From a phage, in the sequence record PZ445418.1: a stretch of DNA of 43,104 nt; one strand, given 5' to 3'. Positions within the stretch are counted from its first letter, which is position 1; every line of letters starts with the position of its first letter. The notes beneath the pieces were generated by a model. The model was not told the origin of the DNA, searched no databases, and saw only the letters and a program-made list of their open reading frames with translations. A program made the position numbers and the translations under genes. Below are positions 2,918 through 38,982 of the stretch, piece after piece.

Positions 2918-4004
2918 TCAATATATGGCGGACCGCATGATCCGCCGTCACATCTTCACCCAGCGCCTGAGCAATGACCAGGCGCGGAGGGTGCTGGCTA
3001 TGTGGGAGAAGTTCCGGCCCACGTTACTGGGTAAGCTGACCGAGTTACTTGATGGCAAAAAGTCCATGAACAACAAGGCACTTACCACTTTGTTAACGCA
3101 ACTCGACAAGACCGTTAAAGCAGAATTGCGCACCGAGTTTAAGGCGTTGGCCGAAAGCCTTCAGGAGTTTGCCGACACCGAGGCCGATTATCTCGCCGAC
3201 ACATTGACGGCAGCGATCCAGCCGGTGGTCGCCGTACCGGCGGTCGAGGTGGTTGGCGTAGTGACCGGTGCGCAGATCGCAGCTACGGCAATGAAAAACC
3301 CGTTCCAGGGTAATACGATGATGCAATGGCCTGACTCACTTTCTGAGTGGACCAGGACGCAGATCGGCAATCAGGTGCGCGCCGGATTCATCCAGGGCAA
3401 GCCGACTATGGAAATTATTGCGGACGTGAGGCGCGCGCTAGGCGGTCGTAGTGCGCAAGCTATCTCGAGCGTTGTTAAATCCGCAGTAAACCACTATGCG
3501 GCGACGGCCCGCGAACTAATGGTAAAAGCAAATGACGATATTCTCGAAGGTCGCCAATGGTTATCTACATTGGACACGCATACTTCTCCCATGTGCCAGC
3601 TACGCGATCGCCTGTTCTATCCGGTCGATGTTACTCCCACTACAAAAGGCAAGCGCGGCGGGAAAGTGGTGGCGGGATCACAATATGGCGCTGGTCCGGG
3701 CAAGCTGCATTATTGCTGCCGTTCGACGGAGACGTGGAAAGTCAAAGGTATGGAAGATTGGCCCAGTGGTAAGCGTCCGGCACTGAAGGCCGACGCAGGC
3801 AGATTGCTGAGTGAGCAGGTCGACGCGCAGACTGATTTCTTCTCATGGGTGCAGCGCCAGCCGCGCCATATCCTGGAGGAATTATATGGAGTGCAACGCG
3901 CCGACCAGATTATGCGCGGCGTGAAAGTGCCGAAGATGTTTACCGATTCTGGCGAACTGATGACTATTGCACAGCTTAAAAACCGGGGGTTATGGCGTGA
4001 TTAA
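2901..4004 (+). CDS. MuF-like minor head / head morphogenesis protein
   Basis: 367 aa, follows portal; C-terminal W-STLD-THTSPMC segment resembles Mu F family. Confidence 0.55.
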   Translation: MAKTINQYMADRMIRRHIFTQRLSNDQARRVLAMWEKFRPTLLGKLTELLDGKKSMNNKALTTLLTQLDKTVKAELRTEFKALAESLQEFADTEADYLADTLTAAIQPVVAVPAVEVVGVVTGAQIAATAMKNPFQGNTMMQWPDSLSEWTRTQIGNQVRAGFIQGKPTMEIIADVRRALGGRSAQAISSVVKSAVNHYAATARELMVKANDDILEGRQWLSTLDTHTSPMCQLRDRLFYPVDVTPTTKGKRGGKVVAGSQYGAGPGKLHYCCRSTETWKVKGMEDWPSGKRPALKADAGRLLSEQVDAQTDFFSWVQRQPRHILEELYGVQRADQIMRGVKVPKMFTDSGELMTIAQLKNRGLWRD

Positions 4005-4305
4005 GTATGCAGCGATTGGGCTGGTAATTGGCCTGGCGGTTGGATTCTGGCAGGGTGATTCCTACCGCACTGGCGTTGAGGCGAGAGCGGCGCAAGAAGC
4101 GCAAGCGAAAGCCCAACGGCAGCAAACTAAGGTTGTCGAGGGGGCTGTGCAGGCAGAACAGGCCCGCGATGTGGAATACCGGACTATCACGAAAGAGGTT
4201 GTTAAATATGTTACGCGCCCTAACCGCCCTGATTGTAGTTTTGATTCTGAGCGCGTGCGGATCAAGCAACGTGCCATTGATGCCGCTAACCGAGTCGGTT
4301 TATAG
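3997..4305 (+). CDS. putative i-spanin (Rz-like)
   Basis: N-terminal TM helix (IKYAAIGLVIGLAVGFW) then Ala/Gln-rich helical domain; GTG at 3997 preceded by GGGGG; a TTG at 3967 is the alternative start. Confidence 0.4.
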   Translation: MIKYAAIGLVIGLAVGFWQGDSYRTGVEARAAQEAQAKAQRQQTKVVEGAVQAEQARDVEYRTITKEVVKYVTRPNRPDCSFDSERVRIKQRAIDAANRVGL

Positions 4306-4438
4306 ACCGCCTTGCACCTTTGAGAATGCCTCGGCAGACCCAGACGAAGACTTGCTTGTTGATGTTAAAAATATGGAGTGTGGGGCAAAGTTAAGGGCGC
4401 AAGTGCTGGAGTTGCAGAAAATAATTCGGGGGCCGTGA
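4208..4438 (+). CDS. putative o-spanin (Rz1-like lipoprotein)
   Basis: starts inside the Rz-like gene in another frame; lipobox LSAC after hydrophobic signal; RBS AAAGAGG 9 nt upstream of ATG; Pro/Cys-containing mature part. Confidence 0.45.
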   Translation: MLRALTALIVVLILSACGSSNVPLMPLTESVYRPPCTFENASADPDEDLLVDVKNMECGAKLRAQVLELQKIIRGP

Positions 4439-4452
4439 TGGCCCCTTTTTTG
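4428..4452 (+). terminator. intrinsic terminator
   Basis: GGGGCC-gtgat-GGCCCC hairpin followed by TTTTTT. Confidence 0.7.
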
Positions 4453-5217
4453 TTATCGCGGAATACCGCAAATCTCGTTTAACGTCTTCACGTCCAGTGC
4501 CACCGCCGTGGACTTCGGCTTGTCAGGGTACGGAATGAATTGTTCCACTTCAGGCCACGCCTTGATCAGCTTCTTATCGGTATTGTGCAAATCCAGCACG
4601 CCAGTTACGGTTAGTTTGAACGCGTCATACTTCGCGCGCAAATCGCGGCGGGCCTTGTCGTTACGGTCAAGGCGCTTGCAGAAATCATGGTCCGCCGGGT
4701 AGTCTACGCGACCGCGCGGAAGATATATCGGCAGCGATTTTCCGTCCTCGTCCACTTCGCACACTGAAGCCAGCATAACTTCCTCGTACCCCGGTACGAT
4801 ATCGCCGAGATCGGGAGATAGCTTATTCATATATTTCTCTTCCCAGTATCCGCGGTGCAGGCGGTATCGGAATCCATCGCCGCTCAATGATACGGTGCGA
4901 ACATTACCTCCTGCGTTGATATCGAATCCGGCGCTATAAACGCTGCCGATGCCTTTTGGCCGGTCGGAGTTATAGCTATACGTCGCCTTGTCGGTGTAAA
5001 CGCTAACGCCATACATCTGCGACTGGTTATCGCGGATTTCTGCGATATATGCGCGTAACTCGGCGAACGTGCGAATGCCTTCCGGCATACAGTCCAGCGT
5101 AATGGCGTACGCCAAGTCGCGAGAGTCCATCATGATGGATTTTGCTTCGGTCGCGATTTCATGGTCGCGCAGGATGTTAGCCAGAATCTTGTTTTTAACG
5201 TCTTTTGTCAGTCTCAT
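4453..5217 (-). CDS. hypothetical protein (opposite-strand gene inside head module)
   Basis: 254 aa from internal ATG (MRLTKD) of the 390-aa track ORF; own promoter upstream; no recognisable motif. Confidence 0.55.
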   Translation of the reverse strand: MRLTKDVKNKILANILRDHEIATEAKSIMMDSRDLAYAITLDCMPEGIRTFAELRAYIAEIRDNQSQMYGVSVYTDKATYSYNSDRPKGIGSVYSAGFDINAGGNVRTVSLSGDGFRYRLHRGYWEEKYMNKLSPDLGDIVPGYEEVMLASVCEVDEDGKSLPIYLPRGRVDYPADHDFCKRLDRNDKARRDLRAKYDAFKLTVTGVLDLHNTDKKLIKAWPEVEQFIPYPDKPKSTAVALDVKTLNEICGIPR

Positions 5218-5246
5218 TTTTGCGTCCTCGTTGTTGGTGTGCAACC

Positions 5247-5275
5247 AATATATGCAACCAATACGCGGATTGCAA
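5247..5275 (-). promoter_or_regulatory. sigma70-like promoter TTGCAA-17-TATATT
   Basis: hexamers with 17-bp spacer on minus strand; two TGCAACCAAT copies (5240-5249, 5253-5262) overlap it. Confidence 0.5.
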
Positions 5276-5365
5276 GCGAATTTTGCGATTATTTTTATCA
5301 CTGATAATATTAGAGGCGTGAAGTCGAGCGGGTGGCCCGCTCTGCCACAATCCCAGGGGGATAGC

Positions 5366-6070
5366 ATGAAACTTACTAAAGCAGAATATGACGCGTTGCC
5401 GGAAGGTATGAAGGCGCTTTTTGTTGCCGATGGTGACGGGTATAAATCAACGTTCATGACCGCAGAAGAAGTACAGGCGGAAATCAAGGGTCTGAAAGAC
5501 AACAACGCGAAGCTGGTGAGCGAGAAGAAAGCAGAAGCCGAACGCCGCGCCGAAGCTGAGCGCCTTGCGAAAGAGAAAGAGGAAGCCGCCGCGCGCAAAA
5601 ATGGCGACCTCGAAGCGATCGACAAGTCCTGGAAAGATAAGTTTGCGAAACACGAAGCAGATACATCGGGAAAAATCGAAGCCTACCGCAAGCAGATCCA
5701 CGATCTAACCATCGGCAGCGCTGCCAAAGACCTGGCGTCGAAGCTGTTCGGTAAGAATGCGGGCATCATGCAACGCCACGTAATGGACCGCCTGACGCTG
5801 GAAGACGGTGAAGACGGCAGCTTGAAAGTGCGTGTCTTGCAGGATGGCAAACCGTCCGCGCTGACTATGGAAGAGCTTGAAAAAGAGTTCCGTAATAACG
5901 CCGATTTTGCATCCGTCCTGGCTGGCACGCCAGCCGGTGGCGCGCCTAGCAAACCGACGCAGGTTGTCGAAGATGTGAAGTCGAAAATCACTATGGGCCA
6001 TAGCTTCGGCATCACTGACCTTACGAAACAGGCAGGTGATATCATCGCTAAGATGGGCGACGACGAGTAA
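5366..6070 (+). CDS. scaffolding protein
   Basis: 234 aa, Ala/Glu/Lys-rich helical sequence directly upstream of capsid gene; RBS GGGGGA. Confidence 0.6.
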   Translation: MKLTKAEYDALPEGMKALFVADGDGYKSTFMTAEEVQAEIKGLKDNNAKLVSEKKAEAERRAEAERLAKEKEEAAARKNGDLEAIDKSWKDKFAKHEADTSGKIEAYRKQIHDLTIGSAAKDLASKLFGKNAGIMQRHVMDRLTLEDGEDGSLKVRVLQDGKPSALTMEELEKEFRNNADFASVLAGTPAGGAPSKPTQVVEDVKSKITMGHSFGITDLTKQAGDIIAKMGDDE

Positions 6071-6074
6071 GCAG

Positions 6075-6100
6075 ATTGCCCGCGAAAGCGGGCAATTTTG
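6075..6100 (+). terminator. intrinsic terminator (weak U-tract)
   Basis: ATTGCCCGC-gaaa-GCGGGCAAT then TTTTG. Confidence 0.45.
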
Positions 6101-6167
6101 CGAGCGCGTAAATCTAAGGTAACATTAACGTCACTGGGCGAATGCTCACAACTCAAAGGATTTCGAT

Positions 6168-7271
6168 ATGTCTTTAACAGTGTTCCAGCGTAAACTCGTT
6201 ACCGCGGTTACGCAAATGATCCCCGACAACCTGAACGTATTCAACGCTGCCGCCAATGGCGCTGTTGTTCTCGGTACTGGTGAAGTGCTGAAGGATGTTG
6301 TAGAAAAAATGTCCGTAGGCTTGATCGCCAACCTTGTTACCGACCGTAACGCCTACGCCCCTGTCGGTACTCCGGCAACCGCTAAAGTGCTGGCGCGTAT
6401 GCTGACCAACTCGGTTAACCTGTCCGCGAAAGTGGGTCCGGTGGCAATCACTAAGGCTATGATGGCTAAGATCGAAACCAACGTTAACAGCGTTGCGGCT
6501 GAGATTGCGGCACAGGCCACGCAAGCGATTATGCTGCATTACCTAAAAGCGGGTATCGGTGCGGGTAAAGCGGCGATCGAGAGCAACAACAACAACGCGG
6601 TATACACCCAACCGGCGCGCGTTGATGGCGTTGGCGGTCGTATCTTCCCGACCCTGGCTGACTTCCCGCTGGCGGCTTCTAAGTTCGGCGATCAGGCGTC
6701 TTTGATTAAGTCCTGGTTTATGGACGGCGTTACCTGGGCAAACTTCATTGCATACCAGGCGCTCCCTTCCGCTGAACAGGTATTCGCGATTGGCGATCTT
6801 CAGGTAATGGGCGATGGCCTGGGCCGTCGTTTCATTATCTCCGATGCCGCTGCCGATGCTATGGGTGCTGGTAAAATGCTGGGTCTGGTCCCTGGCGCGG
6901 TTGCAGTTACCACCAACGGCCTCGATATGCTGGCGCAGGAGAAAGGCGGTAACGAGAACATTGAGCGCTGGTGGCAGGGTGAGTTCGACTTCAACGTGGC
7001 TGTTAAAGGCTACCGTCTGAAGGCGTCCGCTCGTACCCCGATCGAAGGCGTCCGCTCGTTCAAGCTGTCCGATATCACCACCAAGGACAACTGGGAACTG
7101 GACCAGGGCCAGGTAGACAACGCACCGGCAACCGTTCAAGATGTTGGCGCTGTGGGTGATGGCGATACTAAAGGCCGTCGTAAGACCCAGGCCGCACAGG
7201 AAGTGCCGACCCGTCACATCAAGGAAACGGCTGGCGTACTGGTTACGCTGACTGCGACCACAGCGTCCTAA
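6168..7271 (+). CDS. major capsid protein
   Basis: 367 aa ORF after scaffold, followed by a strong terminator; position and size. Confidence 0.65.
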   Translation: MSLTVFQRKLVTAVTQMIPDNLNVFNAAANGAVVLGTGEVLKDVVEKMSVGLIANLVTDRNAYAPVGTPATAKVLARMLTNSVNLSAKVGPVAITKAMMAKIETNVNSVAAEIAAQATQAIMLHYLKAGIGAGKAAIESNNNNAVYTQPARVDGVGGRIFPTLADFPLAASKFGDQASLIKSWFMDGVTWANFIAYQALPSAEQVFAIGDLQVMGDGLGRRFIISDAAADAMGAGKMLGLVPGAVAVTTNGLDMLAQEKGGNENIERWWQGEFDFNVAVKGYRLKASARTPIEGVRSFKLSDITTKDNWELDQGQVDNAPATVQDVGAVGDGDTKGRRKTQAAQEVPTRHIKETAGVLVTLTATTAS

Positions 7272-24793: not shown

Positions 24794-25259
24794 GTAGCTC
24801 ACTCTCGCTCATTATTTCAATTTGCGCGCTGCCGGTGGGTGGCGCTTCGTCAAAGATTATCAATTGCTGGCACTTGTTATTGCTCGGACCGACTTCGCCG
24901 GTGACGGCGTGAATGAATCGAACACGCCAGTCCAGAAGAATTATCAGGTTTGCAGTCTTCCGGGCCAGCTTCGCCCACTTCGTCGACGTGTCCTGATTCA
25001 GTAGCATGACGGTCCGACGTCCATGCGCTGCGCACTCAACCCACGGCAGCGGATCGGAATACGGCGGGTTGCACCACTTCCACCCTTTCAGCTCTGACCA
25101 GTCCGCATCGAGCGCGCTGTGCTCTGCCGTGAAGTAACGCGGTAGCAGGTGGTTGGCATCGCTTGCCGCCATATCGTAACGGAATCGGTACTTCCGGCGC
25201 AGTGGTTTAAATAAAGCTGGCGGTGTGCGCCAGCTATCTTTTTGCTCACTCTTCTGCAT
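24774..25259 (-). CDS. dam: DNA N6-adenine methyltransferase (phage Dam family)
   Basis: 161 aa with NPPY motif (WKWCNPPYSD) and N-terminal W-R-T-P. Confidence 0.8.
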   Translation of the reverse strand: MQKSEQKDSWRTPPALFKPLRRKYRFRYDMAASDANHLLPRYFTAEHSALDADWSELKGWKWCNPPYSDPLPWVECAAHGRRTVMLLNQDTSTKWAKLARKTANLIILLDWRVRFIHAVTGEVGPSNNKCQQLIIFDEAPPTGSAQIEIMSESELHEYLSR

Positions 25260-25710
25260 GATCTGGATCTATCGCGTACAGGGCAATCTTTTCACCTTTA
25301 TTGATGACGCGTTGCACGCGCTTTGACTCCTCGGCACTAAGCGGGCGCGCGTCCGGGTAGAAGCTGCCGTTTGTAGGGTTACGCCACGCCATAAGCACCA
25401 AATCTTTACGGTCAACCTTAGACTGACGACCTTTGGGGGGCACGTATCCCTCGGCGCGTTTGCATTGCTCGCGCAGACCTTCGGCAGTGATGCGGTTTAG
25501 TGCAACGCTGGTGGTGTATCCGGTGCGCTGCATAATCCCCATCAATTCGAATAGCAGTTCGAAGCGCTCCTCTAGCTCCCGGCGCACTTTCTTCTCGCCT
25601 TCATATAGCGCCTGGTTGGAGTCCGCCAGCGCGTTCGCGCGTTCGGCCTGTTCGCGGGCTTCTAGGCATTGCGCGGCCCAGTATGCTTTTTCTTCTTGTA
25701 AAATTATCAT
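25246..25710 (-). CDS. hypothetical protein (first gene after promoter)
   Basis: 154 aa from ATG at 25710 with GGAG RBS; helical N-terminus. Confidence 0.5.
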   Translation of the reverse strand: MIILQEEKAYWAAQCLEAREQAERANALADSNQALYEGEKKVRRELEERFELLFELMGIMQRTGYTTSVALNRITAEGLREQCKRAEGYVPPKGRQSKVDRKDLVLMAWRNPTNGSFYPDARPLSAEESKRVQRVINKGEKIALYAIDPDHAEE

Positions 25711-25756: not shown

Positions 25757-25785
25757 AATATAATGCAACCAATAGGGTTATGCAA
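25757..25785 (-). promoter_or_regulatory. sigma70-like promoter TTGCAT-17-TATATT
   Basis: two TGCAACCAAT copies (25764-25773, 25781-25790); same hexamers as 38620-38648. Confidence 0.5.
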
Positions 25786-35536: not shown

Positions 35537-35866
35537 ATGAACGTAAACGACGCAATCGAAATGTTAACCAAGACTGTTTGCAGTGAGACAAGCCGGTCCT
35601 GGGCGTATACCGATGCCGTGGGGGCGGTGTTATTCGAGGTCGAACGTCTGCGCAGTGTAGAAAAAGAATTACGCGCCAGGCTGGAATTGCTCAACGGTAC
35701 GGCGGCGAGCAAGCTGCAAAAGCACAATGAGGAAATGGAAGAATACAAAAAGCAGGTTATCCGTTTGCGCGCCGAGGGAAAGTCATGGGCGATGATCGCG
35801 GAGTTGACAGGAATTAATCAGAGCACCGTGCGATCCTGGGTACGCAATAACAAAACTTCGAAGTAA
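35537..35866 (+). CDS. helix-turn-helix DNA-binding protein
   Basis: 109 aa, C-terminal GKSWAMIAELTGINQSTVRSWVRN HTH-like segment; GGAGA RBS. Confidence 0.55.
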   Translation: MNVNDAIEMLTKTVCSETSRSWAYTDAVGAVLFEVERLRSVEKELRARLELLNGTAASKLQKHNEEMEEYKKQVIRLRAEGKSWAMIAELTGINQSTVRSWVRNNKTSK

Positions 35867-35876
35867 GGCAACGGCA

Positions 35877-38141
35877 ATGAGCTTAATTAAATTCGCTGTA
35901 ACAAGACCCGCTAAAAAAGGCGAAAAAGCCAGGGCGGAAAACTTCCAGATGACGACCGATGAGTTTTTCGAATTTATCAAAGATGCGAAAGAAATCTCCT
36001 CGGTGCATATCAACAAGACCGAGGATAAAGCCGAGTATGCGCGCCGCAAGCGTAAGGCCGACGGCATCGTGGCGTATACCAGTGATGGATTGCGTCGCAA
36101 GACCAGTGCGGTGGACCGCTCGATCCTGTTCTTCGATATTGACCGTACCGACACCCGCACCCTACGCCGCTGCCGTAAGGCGTTCATTGACGCGGGTATG
36201 GAACACGTATTTCACACCACAACCGGCGACCGTCACCCACTGAAAGGCGGTATGCGTTGTGCCCGTTTCCTGGTGCTCACCGATAAGCCTGTACCGGCTG
36301 AAGACCTGGGCCGCGTCCAGTATGCACTACTACACCAACTGGGCCTGTCAGATGTGGACTTCGACGATTGCACGAAAGACACTAACCGCCTAATGTACCT
36401 GCCACATCAGCAGTCTGTCGTTAAGTGTCACTACGGCAAACGTGCCCGCGTCCGTCGTCTGCTTCGCCTGGCTGATAAGCTGGGAGTGGAAAAAGAGGAA
36501 GTACGCCGCGAACTAACCCAGGGCGATGACGGCGTGGCAGACGGTATTCTGGATTGGTGCTTCCAGGCGGGATTCGAACCGCTGTCGTCCGGTCGTGGCT
36601 ATGAAGTGCCGTGCCCGAACGAACACCTGCACAGCGGCGAAGGGTCCACCGCTATTATGGTTAAGGATGGCGAGATCCGTTTCAAGTGTATGCACACCGG
36701 AAACGAGTGCTGTTCCGAACTGAACAGACACCAGCACCTGGCGCTACGTCTTATAGGGATCCCGGACCACCTGAACGTCGAACCGCACAACATGTCACGT
36801 AAGCAAATCGCCGCCATCCTCCCTGGACTGGACGACGAGGAAGTCGAATCGTGCTATGAACATATTGTTGATGCAGTTGGCGACGGCGAAGAATACGGCG
36901 TGTGCACCGATGCGGATCTGGATAACGAGCCGGTCGCACTCTTCAGTAAGCACGACCCGATCATAGAAGGCCTGGTAAACTTCAAATCGACCTGGTACAT
37001 GGCTGGCGAGTCGAACATCGGTAAATCGTTCTACGTGCTGGGGCAAATGGGCGCGGTTGCCGCGGGGATTCCGTTCGGTGGCGCGAAGGTAGTCCAGTCT
37101 CATTGCTTCTATTTCGACGCGGAAGGTGGTGAAGCCTCCAACCAGCGTAAAGAAGCATTGCAGATTAAATACGAGCACGACCTGGACAAGCTGCACATTA
37201 TCGATCTGCAATCACGCGGCTGGGATATCACCAGCAAATCCGGCTTGCGTGAAGTTATCAGCTTCATCAACCGCACCGCTAACGGCGAGCCGGTTGGCCT
37301 GGTGGCGTTCGACTCACTCAACCAGACTGTTGCGCTGCGGTCCGCCGATGCAAAACCGTTCGACGAGAATAACGCCAGCGATATGGGTGAAGTGGTCAAA
37401 GCGCTGAAGGCCATTGCGGAAAATACAGGCGGCAGTGCGGGCGTCATCCACCACCCAGCGAAGGGTGCAAACGGCAGCAGATCTCCCCGTGGGTCCGGCG
37501 CGCTTCATGGTGCTGTCGATTCTGCGTTCTTCCTGGAACAGCCGGACGACAACCAGCCAGGCCAACTCAACCTGTACCATGAAAAGGCACGTAACGGCAT
37601 CAAGCAAGCGCCGCGCGGCTTCGTCCTGCTTAAGTGCAAGGTTAAGGTGGATCTCCGCAAGTCCGAGGCGTTCGAAGCCCACCAGTCCACCAGCACCGGG
37701 CCGGACTTCGGTGATGTGGTTGCCGGATGGGACGTCAAGCCAATTGCCTCCACGCCACGCGACGAGACTCTCTACCTCGTACCGGTCGCCCTGGCGCCGT
37801 TCGCTATCGAACAGGCAAAGGCAGCGGGCAAAGCAGCAGTTAAGGAAGAGAACACCGCCGGACCGCGCAACGAAAAAGAAAAGGTACTTTACGCGGCGCT
37901 GGAAAAACTGATGGAAGACAACCCGGACCATACCGGATTCAGTAAATCGGCAATTGTCCGCCAGGCGGGATTGGCAAAAGGTGGCACATCGACGAAGGCA
38001 ATCGACGATATGGTCGAGCGCGGAGTGCTGGGTTTTTACACCGATCCGCACACTGGGGCCATCTATGGGTCGTCGAATATCGTCATTAAAACGAATATAC
38101 CCATCACGCTTTCGGCGACCGACGAAGATTTAAAAGATTAA
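35877..38141 (+). CDS. primase / replicative ATPase fusion protein
   Basis: 754 aa; Cys/His cluster CPNEHLH...CMHTGNEC; Walker A GESNIGKS and Walker B-like LVAFDSLN in C-terminal half. Confidence 0.7.
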   Translation: MSLIKFAVTRPAKKGEKARAENFQMTTDEFFEFIKDAKEISSVHINKTEDKAEYARRKRKADGIVAYTSDGLRRKTSAVDRSILFFDIDRTDTRTLRRCRKAFIDAGMEHVFHTTTGDRHPLKGGMRCARFLVLTDKPVPAEDLGRVQYALLHQLGLSDVDFDDCTKDTNRLMYLPHQQSVVKCHYGKRARVRRLLRLADKLGVEKEEVRRELTQGDDGVADGILDWCFQAGFEPLSSGRGYEVPCPNEHLHSGEGSTAIMVKDGEIRFKCMHTGNECCSELNRHQHLALRLIGIPDHLNVEPHNMSRKQIAAILPGLDDEEVESCYEHIVDAVGDGEEYGVCTDADLDNEPVALFSKHDPIIEGLVNFKSTWYMAGESNIGKSFYVLGQMGAVAAGIPFGGAKVVQSHCFYFDAEGGEASNQRKEALQIKYEHDLDKLHIIDLQSRGWDITSKSGLREVISFINRTANGEPVGLVAFDSLNQTVALRSADAKPFDENNASDMGEVVKALKAIAENTGGSAGVIHHPAKGANGSRSPRGSGALHGAVDSAFFLEQPDDNQPGQLNLYHEKARNGIKQAPRGFVLLKCKVKVDLRKSEAFEAHQSTSTGPDFGDVVAGWDVKPIASTPRDETLYLVPVALAPFAIEQAKAAGKAAVKEENTAGPRNEKEKVLYAALEKLMEDNPDHTGFSKSAIVRQAGLAKGGTSTKAIDDMVERGVLGFYTDPHTGAIYGSSNIVIKTNIPITLSATDEDLKD

Positions 38142-38260
38142 ATTTTGCGCGCATTGGTTGCCGATATGGGAATTCCCATATCGCTAAAAGGTTAAATTTT
38201 GCGCGCATTGGTTGCCATTTTGAGTGTTTTTATTTGGTCGTATTGGTTGCCGTGTAGTGT
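38138..38260. repeat. direct repeats flanking a perfect 20-bp palindrome
   Basis: TTAAATTTTGCGCGCATTGGTTGCC at 38138-38162 and 38192-38216; palindrome GATATGGGAATTCCCATATC at 38163-38182; third ATTGGTTGCC at 38242-38251. Confidence 0.75.
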
Positions 38261-38268
38261 AAATATAG

Positions 38269-38463
38269 TGAATAGTTATGCAGTTTTATTGCATAAAGTA
38301 AGCGGGACAGAAAGCGGGACAAACAAGGGGCGGGACAAAGCGGGACAGCACCCCCGTCCCGCCCCGGATGGCGCGGCTTCCAGAGGAGCGGGACAGCGGG
38401 ACAGCACCCCAGTCTTTCAGACTAGACGGGGGTCATCGGCCCCCCTCGTCTGAGACTGAATAA
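38269..38463. repeat. iteron element B (second copy of element A)
   Basis: box TGAATAGTTATGCAGTTTTATTGCATAAA, six GCGGGACA(G/A) units, terminal hairpin differing from copy A at only 2 positions. Confidence 0.8.
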
Positions 38464-38619
38464 AATCCGGGGGATTGCAAAATACACGGCAGCATGTTGC
38501 GAAGTGCGGTCGCGGATGAACTAGGCAACCAATGCGAGATGCATTATGCGGAGTGAAAAACACAGTTTGCAGTTGCAGCAGATAGCGATCAACTTTTTCA
38601 TGCGCATGTTTGATATTGG

Positions 38620-38648
38620 TTGCATCCGCCCTAGCACCCTGCTATATT
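38620..38648 (+). promoter_or_regulatory. sigma70-like promoter TTGCAT-17-TATATT
   Basis: flanked by ATTGGTTGCA at 38615-38624 and 38645-38654; leader matches the one upstream of 4453..5217. Confidence 0.55.
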
Positions 38649-38676
38649 GGTTGCACACCAACAAGAGGACTGAACA

Positions 38677-38982
38677 ATGAAAGCGATTATCTGGAATTAC
38701 TCCCTGGCCGTGGCAAAGCTGGACGAAGCGAAGGCACTAAACAGCAACGTAGATCAGGCGCTTCAGGTTGCGATACTGGCGCATCAATCCCTTCGCAGCG
38801 CGCTCTATGGCATGGGCGCCAGCATGGACGAACTGAGGCCGTTGCGTATGGCAATCCACGAATACGCGCGGGCATTCTCCCGTGAGCGCCTGGCGTATCG
38901 CTTCGGTATTGGCGATAAGGCAGTGACAAACGTCGCCAGGATTAAAGCCCAGCGCGAGCTATTCGCCCAGCTTGCGAAATAA
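38677..38982 (+). CDS. hypothetical protein
   Basis: 101 aa helical protein, RBS GAGGA. Confidence 0.5.
   Translation: MKAIIWNYSLAVAKLDEAKALNSNVDQALQVAILAHQSLRSALYGMGASMDELRPLRMAIHEYARAFSRERLAYRFGIGDKAVTNVARIKAQRELFAQLAK

Follow-up and report, generated by a model that had tools for sequence, protein, structure and literature searches.

What is a single gene doing on the opposite strand in the middle of the head genes of a phage: is it part of the virion, a recent insertion, or a gene of another kind that happens to be housed there? The question is raised by sequence record PZ445418.1, a phage DNA of 43,104 nucleotides that was analysed over its full length and is called the window throughout, in which the gene nmad5 forms an antisense unit between the head-morphogenesis and spanin genes on one side and the scaffold and capsid genes on the other. 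The gene is no new discovery, being a named, studied and non-essential accessory gene that is found genus-wide in Dhillonvirus phages and has already been linked to the Tmn defence; what this analysis adds is its presence in all 157 records considered, a promoter family to which its own predicted promoter belongs, the lack of hypermodification enzymes in the window and a confident structural model that matches no solved fold. With moderate confidence, we take its product, Nmad5, to be an early-expressed host-interaction protein that has no part in the virion and that probably does not modify bases in this phage.

The original prediction, made from the letters alone, had described a 254-residue gene of unrecognisable function on the minus strand between the portal/MuF and scaffold/capsid genes. 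Its size, strand and place are confirmed (4453-5217), with the addition that spanin genes lie between the MuF-like gene and nmad5, and the function turns out to be recognisable at least by family, as the product matches Pfam Nmad5 (PF18757) end to end (E 8.5e-57; 193 bits against a gathering threshold of 27; residues 1-253 on positions 1-206 of the 206-position profile) and the gene was already named nmad5 in the genus. The protein also matches PHROG 1965, is an exact match to YP_010740601.1, the bas17_0007 product of Escherichia phage KarlBarth (Bas17), a Dhillonvirus of the BASEL collection in wide laboratory use, and carries all of the signature residues of the family, namely the N-terminal R-L-T, the T-x-x-[KR]-L-x-x-x-W-P-E motif and the C-terminal L-N-x-x-x-G-L-P. 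The start is placed at 5217 because the M-R-L-T N-terminus is kept family-wide (R2 in 86% and L3 in 87% of 136 diverse sequences). No second Nmad5 paralogue was found in the window, and PADLOC and NCBIfam returned no match for Nmad5, for the product of the gene at 38677 or for the anti-Tmn homologue, both of which are introduced below.

Given its position between the head-morphogenesis and the scaffold/capsid genes, nmad5 might be supposed to encode a head-assembly or virion protein, simply written on the other strand. Clear homology to a structural virion protein was one of two findings that the original prediction had named as fatal to its own view, and none was seen to any head, scaffold, connector or other structural family in Pfam, PHROGs, the Protein Data Bank (PDB) or a viral structure library. 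As homologues elsewhere sit in early or replication modules, the predicted promoter that serves the gene alone is of one class with those of cor and the anti-Tmn gene, and its deletion is viable, a virion role is very hard to credit. Of the flanking genes, those for TerL (Terminase_6N/6C), the portal-type DUF4055 protein and the Gp13-like major capsid protein were assigned by Pfam, while the labels head-morphogenesis, Rz/Rz1 spanin and scaffold were taken from the annotation of the relatives SECphi18 and SM_S22; the portal has been identified independently in work on RAZR with SECphi18.

Distribution and composition bear on the age of the gene. The 1.2-kb nmad5 region has counterparts in 157 phage records, nearly all from Dhillonviruses of Escherichia, and the capsid gene is likewise found in 157 records, with breakdowns by organism and host that are identical to those of the nmad5 locus. 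The G+C content of nmad5 is 52.7%, against 54.6% for the genome, and in a metagenomic relative with a 44%-identical Nmad5 the gene likewise runs antisense at this place, next to genes for the scaffold and a Gp13-like capsid protein. Because it is present in 157 of 157 capsid-bearing records, is ordinary in composition and keeps its position in a distant relative, nmad5 is an old genus-wide gene and not the insertion for which it had been taken; neither sporadic presence nor other signs of recent acquisition were seen, and recent horizontal acquisition, considered as a candidate explanation, was ruled out as there is no G+C anomaly. Change has nevertheless been quicker at this locus than in the capsid gene, since most records are 80-90% identical over nmad5 as against 90-95% over the capsid gene, and the variation is uneven along the protein, with 68% variable sites in residues 51-135 and 32% in residues 176-254 among Dhillonviruses. 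Residue K216, which is central to what follows, is invariant in 36 Dhillonvirus sequences.

Judged from its sequence, nmad5 is a stand-alone minus-strand unit that comprises a putative promoter, a short leader, a Shine-Dalgarno-like hexamer, the 254-residue open reading frame (ORF) and a bidirectional terminator-like hairpin (Table 1), so that the earlier description of a gene bracketed by a terminator and its own promoter holds as a prediction. Folding of the hairpin gives minimum free energies of -17.8 (plus strand) and -13.6 kcal/mol (minus strand). With the spanin genes placed between the MuF-like gene and nmad5, it parts the convergent Rz1 and nmad5 genes. These Rz/Rz1-type genes overlap each other at 3967-4438 (+), and lie within the head module about 36 kb away from the lysozyme/holin region (near 40.4-41.5 kb); Rz1 has the lipobox LILSAC. 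Read on the plus strand, this same hairpin (4428-4446) is a strong predicted terminator that breaks the late gene block ahead of scaffold and capsid, and no convincing plus-strand promoter for the scaffold gene was seen in the 148-bp divergent region (5218-5365), which offers only GATAAT at 5303-5308 with a poor -35.

The promoter-like site of nmad5 matches the sigma-70 hexamers at 9 of 12 positions and has the spacing of a sigma-70 promoter; its -35 hexamer, TTGCAA (5270-5275), reads the same on either strand. The -10 and the 16 nt that follow it make up a 22-nt element, TATATTGGTTGCACACCAACAA, which contains the inverted repeat TTGGT-N5-ACCAA (read from the letters) and is present in exactly two copies in the window, with none expected and none found in 100 shuffles. 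The second copy stands at 38643-38664 (+), and both are followed by GAGGAC, so the likeness that had been noted between the promoter and leader of nmad5 and those of the gene at 38677 is exact over this element. The nmad5 promoter is kept in SECphi18, SM_S22, CHD5UKE2, several Dhillonviruses from IMG/VR and one distant relative. A 5' hairpin in the leader is weak (-3.4 and -2.5 kcal/mol); in a generic sigma-70 scan of positions 1-40000, counts were at or below shuffle expectation, the hexamers were uninformative and the TTGCAT promoters were missed.

At the core of the 22-mer is a decamer, ATTGGTTGCA, and it is this motif that ties nmad5 to other genes of the phage. Allowing one mismatch, there are 15 copies in the window against 3.0 expected, a 5-fold enrichment and a count that was reached in none of 100 shuffles, and a reading of their contexts places nearly all of them between genes. 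Three promoters combine TTGCA(A/T)-17 nt-TATATT with two copies of the motif, namely that of nmad5, the one at 25785-25757 (-), ahead of a homologue of the anti-Tmn gene of SM_S22, and the one at 38620-38648 (+), at the head of a cluster of small genes at 38.6 kb, while in the promoter of cor, a superinfection-exclusion gene, the -35 lies inside a copy of the motif. The positions of the motif are syntenic and footprint-like in SM_S22; in the anti-Tmn promoter both motifs are identical between the two phages and 5 of the 7 nt between the motifs differ. The distant relative with the 44%-identical Nmad5 keeps TTGCAA-N5-ATTGGTTGCA-..-TATAGT upstream of its gene, and different first genes are found behind the same promoter-leader in SM_S22 and CHD5UKE2, the SM_S22 site syntenic to the 38.6-kb promoter having the same promoter and another first gene. 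This is good comparative evidence that the motif marks what would be a functional, modular class of promoter and operator, heading host-interaction genes (the anti-Tmn homologue, cor, the 38.6-kb small-gene cluster and nmad5). To call the nmad5 promoter 'early-type', as the original prediction did, appears reasonable in view of this shared architecture and of its retention in relatives whose protein is 44% identical; the timing that the label implies is weighed further below.

Table 1. Features of the nmad5 unit and of the other units that share its promoter motif (window coordinates).
Feature	Position	Strand	Details
Bidirectional intrinsic-terminator-like hairpin between convergent Rz1 and nmad5	4428-4446	both	GGGGGCCGTGATGGCCCCT + TTTTTTG; G+C-rich with T-runs
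nmad5 coding sequence (bas17_0007)	4453-5217	minus	254 residues + stop; ATG at 5217, TAA at 4455-4453; from ORF and translation
Shine-Dalgarno-like GAGGAC	5224-5229	minus	7 nt before ATG; same hexamer ahead of the 38677 gene
22-nt element TATATTGGTTGCACACCAACAA (-10 + first 16 nt downstream)	5231-5252	minus	Identical to 38643-38664 (+)
Two ATTGGTTGCA copies at the nmad5 promoter	5240-5262	minus	5262-5253 in spacer; 5249-5240 over -10 and expected start site
Sigma-70-type promoter-like site of nmad5	5247-5275	minus	-35 TTGCAA 5275-5270; 17-nt spacer; -10 TATATT 5252-5247
cor superinfection-exclusion lipoprotein gene, 72 residues	21086-21304	minus	Lipobox LLSGC; PHROG 1119 Cor, E 1e-27
cor promoter (predicted)	21363-21358 / 21340-21335	minus	-35 TTGCAT inside ATTGGTTGCA motif; 17 nt; -10 AATACT
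Anti-Tmn homologue	25249-25710	minus	82% identity over 154 residues to SM_S22 CDS0035 (ORF35); tblastn E 1.8e-74
Third promoter of the class (predicted)	25757-25785	minus	TTGCAT-17-TATATT; two ATTGGTTGCA motifs
Sister promoter (predicted)	38620-38664	plus	-35 TTGCAT 38620-38625; 17 nt; -10 TATATT 38643-38648; same 22-mer, then GAGGAC and ATG at 38677
101-residue gene of unknown function behind the sister promoter	38677-38982	plus	ORF; PHROG 9839; no Pfam, NCBIfam or PADLOC match for the product

Several observations attach to these units. The anti-Tmn homologue, with its own promoter, sits inside the replication operon, and its family is labelled 'DNA ligase' by public annotation and PHROGs, for which Pfam gives no support. 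The cor gene is a second antisense single-gene unit in a structural block, here that of the tail, just upstream of the tail-fibre gene; in the syntenic place in SM_S22 the annotation lists small plus-strand ORFs only. As to what might act on the motif, a sigma-54 reading of ATTGGTTGCA was rejected since the spacing of GG and GC does not fit, as read from the sequence. A 109-residue protein (35537-35866, +) with a C-terminal helix-turn-helix (HTH_23, Sigma70_r4_2), encoded just upstream of the primase-helicase gene and called a 'transposase' in the annotation of relatives, is a candidate regulator or binder of ATTGGTTGCA, which is speculation on our part. The intergenic region that follows the primase-helicase gene (38141-38676) holds six copies of ATTGGTTGC(A/C), notably at 38153-38162, 38207-38216 and 38242-38251; two of the six are preceded by the same AAATTTTGCGCGC, 54 bp apart, beside an GATATGGGAATTCCCATATC palindrome, and this stretch may have a control function or serve as an origin of replication.

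With a promoter-like site and a terminator of its own and an orientation independent of the surrounding operon, nmad5 has the marks of a moron-type unit, so far as promoter function can be read from the DNA. Moron units such as cor and llp, found by receptor-binding genes, are like nmad5 in being single dispensable genes that have a private promoter and terminator and are independent of the late genes around them, and cor in this very genome is arranged as nmad5 is, with the same promoter motif. Unlike sporadic morons, nmad5 is in every sampled genome of the genus and shows no compositional sign of recent gain. The variable parts at the locus are instead a slot between the promoter and nmad5 and a second slot downstream. 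About half of the Dhillonvirus loci in IMG/VR have in the first slot a small ORF, one of at least three unrelated kinds without a Pfam match; each of these ORFs is followed by a GGGGCGAAAGCCCC hairpin, and the junction is at CCAACA of the leader. Some Dhillonviruses, CHD5UKE2 among them, carry in the downstream slot, within the same unit, a 171-residue gene (PHROG 3007) that has a weak match to DNA_pol3_beta_2 (E 2e-4, below the cut-off).

For the protein itself, structure prediction had been proposed as a check, and it delivered a confident model, though not a fold by which function might be recognised. The AlphaFold model, built from an alignment of 136 diverse homologues, has a predicted local distance difference test score (pLDDT) of 90.5 and a predicted template modelling score of 0.84 (a first model, from 6 sequences, was poor, with a pLDDT of 56.6, and was not used). 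It begins with three helices, which are followed by a beta region, a long helix (178-209), a pair of short helices that carry K216...W221-P222-E223 and, at the C-terminus, one more helix. No solved structure resembles it, structural and sequence similarity together gave no enzyme fold, and in a viral structure library it matches other Nmad5 proteins only. A profile search of 1.84 billion representatives returned 382 relatives, mostly of about 200 residues; the Dhillonvirus form, at 254, is about 50 residues longer, the extra residues falling in the middle, in the fast-evolving beta region.

Conservation among the 136 diverse members is concentrated in a few positions. T213, L217, W221, P222, E223, L246 and N247 are at least 90% conserved and R2, L3, I11 and G104 more than 80%, position 8 is basic in 125 of the 136, and position 216 carries K or R in 101, the six residues most often seen there including no acidic one. 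The model gives an isolated beta bridge both at residue 2 and at T213, from which the N-terminus and the K216 motif may be read as one patch; the conserved surface as modelled (R2-L3-T4; T213-x-x-[K/R]216-L217-x-x-x-W221-P222-E223; L246-N247-x-x-x-G-L-P) fits a putative binding surface. The extreme C-terminus is conserved to an unusual degree, the tail TAVALDVKTLNEICGIPR (the last 18 codons, 4453-4510) being identical in a 35%-identical homologue. Over the last 24 codons the two genes differ by 12 synonymous and 2 non-synonymous changes, so that the identity of the tail reflects purifying selection and not recent exchange, and selection that is unusually strong for the extreme end of a protein.

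What is known of the gene from genetics comes from the sister phages SM_A8 and SM_S22. Dhillonvirus mutants that escape Tmn carry K216E in SM_A8 and K296E in an SM_S22 lacking anti-Tmn, both changes being in nmad5; reversion of the change alone restores sensitivity and its introduction alone gives resistance, whereas a clean deletion of nmad5 is viable and, in the anti-Tmn-less background, still Tmn-sensitive. The same study failed to clone nmad5, owing to apparent toxicity, and defined ORF35 of SM_S22 experimentally as anti-Tmn (Yamashita et al. 2025, Commun Biol, PMC11846954). Other published escape screens with SECphi18 map to SSB, DNA polymerase, the portal and Ksap1, and not to nmad5.

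The two residue numbers reconcile readily. In SM_S22 the gene is annotated with 334 residues, which are the 254-residue protein and an 80-residue N-terminal extension (5005-6009 in SM_S22, corresponding to 4453-5457 in the window). The in-frame ATG of the longer form is also present in the window, where a start at this ATG would put the beginning of the gene ahead of its promoter and in overlap with the oppositely oriented scaffold gene, and the extension is missing from the rest of the family; the 334-residue form is most likely an annotation artefact and the 'truncated N-terminus' of SM_A8 the normal form. Since the extension is a difference of annotation, K296 of SM_S22 and K216 are the same residue of a protein of the same length. 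The SM_S22/SM_A8 gene is the orthologue of the one in the window, with 87% identity to the SM_S22 protein over all 254 residues. The two genes share their promoter and their antisense place next to the scaffold gene, and K216 stands in a ...NTDKKLIKAWPEV... context common to SM_S22 and the window protein. The published genetics, that is dispensability, toxicity and escape from Tmn by K-to-E, should thus carry over to the window gene.

How far do these data support the guess, made because the gene sits as an apparent insertion in a structural module, that it has a host-interaction or anti-defence function? The link to host interaction stands in so far as the orthologue is tied to Tmn genetically, but anti-defence by the wild-type protein is not supported, as escape in the literature comes from the K-to-E variant only and never from deletion.

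A more direct connection would be that Tmn binds wild-type Nmad5 and senses it as a molecular pattern, with K216E abolishing recognition. There is a model for this in phage T2, where the early protein RIIB switches Tmn on by binding to it directly, and where the RIIB variant D219S binds without activating (2026 preprint, PMC13001434). Like RIIB, Nmad5 would be an early, non-structural protein, and in each of them one substitution settles how the phage fares against Tmn; escape mutants that arose independently in two phages have hit the same Nmad5 residue, with sensitivity restored on reversion, and K216 lies in the most conserved surface motif. The parallel fails, however, where RIIB loss-of-function mutants escape Tmn and the nmad5 deletion does not: a deletion without escape means that Nmad5 cannot be the sole trigger, and simple loss of recognition is insufficient to explain the K216E phenotype. 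Failure to clone the gene has precluded a co-expression toxicity test, and a relation between the nmad5 product and T4 RIIB, considered as a candidate, was rejected on an hhalign probability of 0.3%. We therefore find it improbable that Nmad5 is the pattern sensed by Tmn.

The name of the family (nucleotide modification associated domain 5), and the published work on SM_S22 and SM_A8, suggest a different route, in which Nmad5 is a DNA base-modification enzyme or an obligatory accessory to one and Tmn detects the DNA so modified. It was the company of modification genes that gave the family its name, and the Nmad5 proteins of the thymidine-hypermodifying Pseudomonas phages M6, SN1 and LKO4 share M-R-L-T, T-x-x-K-L-x-x-x-W-P-E and the C-terminal L-N-x-x-x-G-L-P with the window protein. 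Their genes stand in a cluster with the 5-hydroxymethyldeoxyuridine (5-hmdU) kinase and aGPT-Pplase (in the Yuavirus LKO4 the copy is inside the thymidine-hypermodification cluster, and a note on SN1 says likewise), whereas nmad5 in the window is alone in the head module. Pfam scans of the window's predicted proteins gave Dam as the only DNA-modifying enzyme family, a point that could be counted in favour of modification, and no hydroxymethylase, 5-hmdU kinase, aGPT-Pplase, glycosyltransferase, radical-SAM or pyridoxal-phosphate enzyme; the partners expected of hypermodification (a ThyA-like hydroxymethylase, 5-hmdU DNA kinase and aGPT-Pplase) are thus not found, although the same scans did find these families beside Nmad5 in other phages. 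The annotation of SM_S22 contains no hypermodification genes either. Restriction of types I and II is reported to act clearly more strongly on Dhillonviruses than on the Queuovirinae, whose DNA is deazaguanine-modified (PMC8594841).

Gene neighbourhoods across the family bear on the same issue. Nmad5 loci, for which a related-locus search was made from a 12-sequence alignment, fall into 24 distinct groups drawn from IMG/VR and from annotated phages, and no gene is a universal neighbour of Nmad5 across them. Three of the 24 groups adjoin 5-hmdU DNA kinase, HMUDK_hel or ThyA-like genes (LKO4 being an example), which speaks for modification, and five have a CI-type repressor gene a few genes upstream, as in the P22-like Kapi1, where nmad5 is found between cI and cIII/kil/recT in the early-left operon. 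In other groups (Guernseyvirinae and metagenomic phages) it heads an operon of exonuclease, SSB and polymerase genes, divergent from the primase-helicase gene, and in others again it lies beside NADAR/YAcAr/HD genes. What these neighbourhoods share is early, non-structural DNA metabolism or host takeover, and not base modification. A nucleotide pocket could be made up of the conserved R/K, T, W, E and N residues, but most groups stand outside modification clusters, no known enzyme fold was detected, and a deletion that leaves the phage Tmn-sensitive is at odds with Tmn sensing a modification that Nmad5 makes. For this phage a role in base modification is accordingly a poor prospect, one that we rate no higher than the sensing of Nmad5 by Tmn.

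From the same neighbourhoods arises a third possibility, that Nmad5 is an accessory of phage replication or recombination, for example docking on the replisome or the host sliding clamp through its C-terminal tail, with only an indirect link to defence. The operons of the Guernseyvirinae and metagenomic phages and the place of the Kapi1 gene with recT and kil are what it would predict, the weak sliding-clamp-like match of the downstream 171-residue gene and the strong purifying selection on the extreme C-terminal L-N-x-x-x-G-L-P are in keeping with it, and toxicity on cloning fits interference with host replication. Yet nmad5 is dispensable for plaque formation, the neighbourhoods hold no universal replication partner, and the tail is a doubtful docking peptide, being modelled at fair confidence as a folded helix, with an invariant N where clamp motifs have Q, for all its putative likeness to clamp-binding peptides. 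We hold a replication role to be unlikely, if slightly less so than the two preceding ideas.

The explanation that we prefer, an early host-interaction protein, would work as follows. Host sigma-70 RNA polymerase would transcribe nmad5 from its ATTGGTTGCA-class promoter, so that the protein would be made early, with the host-interaction genes of the phage and independently of the late structural transcript around it, and the copy of the motif over the start site may be an operator for a regulator. Nmad5 would be a soluble protein acting through its conserved patch on a partner, either a protein or a phosphorylated or nucleotide ligand, in early DNA metabolism or host takeover, and on this proposed account it is because the conserved surface binds such a partner that the cloned gene would be toxic. 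K216E, by which a conserved basic position takes the opposite charge, would confer a gain of function and keep Tmn from being activated, either through binding that is non-productive or because the real trigger is masked; we suggest a gain of function since it is the simplest way to fit escape by K-to-E with the failure of deletion to give escape, and RIIB D219S offers a precedent. Tentatively, and as a version that may well prove to go too far, one could add that Nmad5 is misnamed: it would be an early protein of new fold whose RLT/TxxKLxxxWPE/LNxxxGLP patch acts on a host or replisome target, it would lie directly within the sensing path of the membrane NTPase Tmn, and it would belong to a co-regulated host-interaction regulon (nmad5, anti-Tmn, cor and early small genes) defined by ATTGGTTGCA, in which the promoter-leader is a landing pad for swaps of accessory genes.

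A number of points weigh against the preferred explanation. The promoter hexamers are by themselves not above chance, the nmad5 site being the sole one found in a scan of both strands from 3800 to 6200 in which 1.9 were expected from shuffles, and the -35 sequences TTGCAA and TTGCAT are a moderate match only. The early timing of nmad5 is inferred from the company that its promoter keeps, that is the cor and anti-Tmn promoters, and no Dhillonvirus transcriptome was found in the literature. R2, K/R8, T213, K/R216, W221, E223 and N247 could equally line a small pocket for catalysis or nucleotide binding, which makes an enzymatic role possible, and the missing match in the PDB is no proof against catalysis. 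The Tmn data, lastly, were obtained in sister phages with an 87%-identical protein, and their authors read nmad5 as a DNA-modification gene.

In practical terms the gain is modest: the results may guide the engineering of therapeutic Dhillonviruses, and they correct a probable mis-annotation, that of the 334-residue form, and a functional label that is probably misleading. For the biology of these phages, nmad5 belongs to the very small number of phage genes on which the encounter with the Tmn defence is known to turn, and to find it as a stand-alone gene, without a known fold and with no modification enzymes found in the genome and with a promoter class common to anti-Tmn and cor, sharpens the question of what Nmad5 does and how a change from K to E defeats Tmn.

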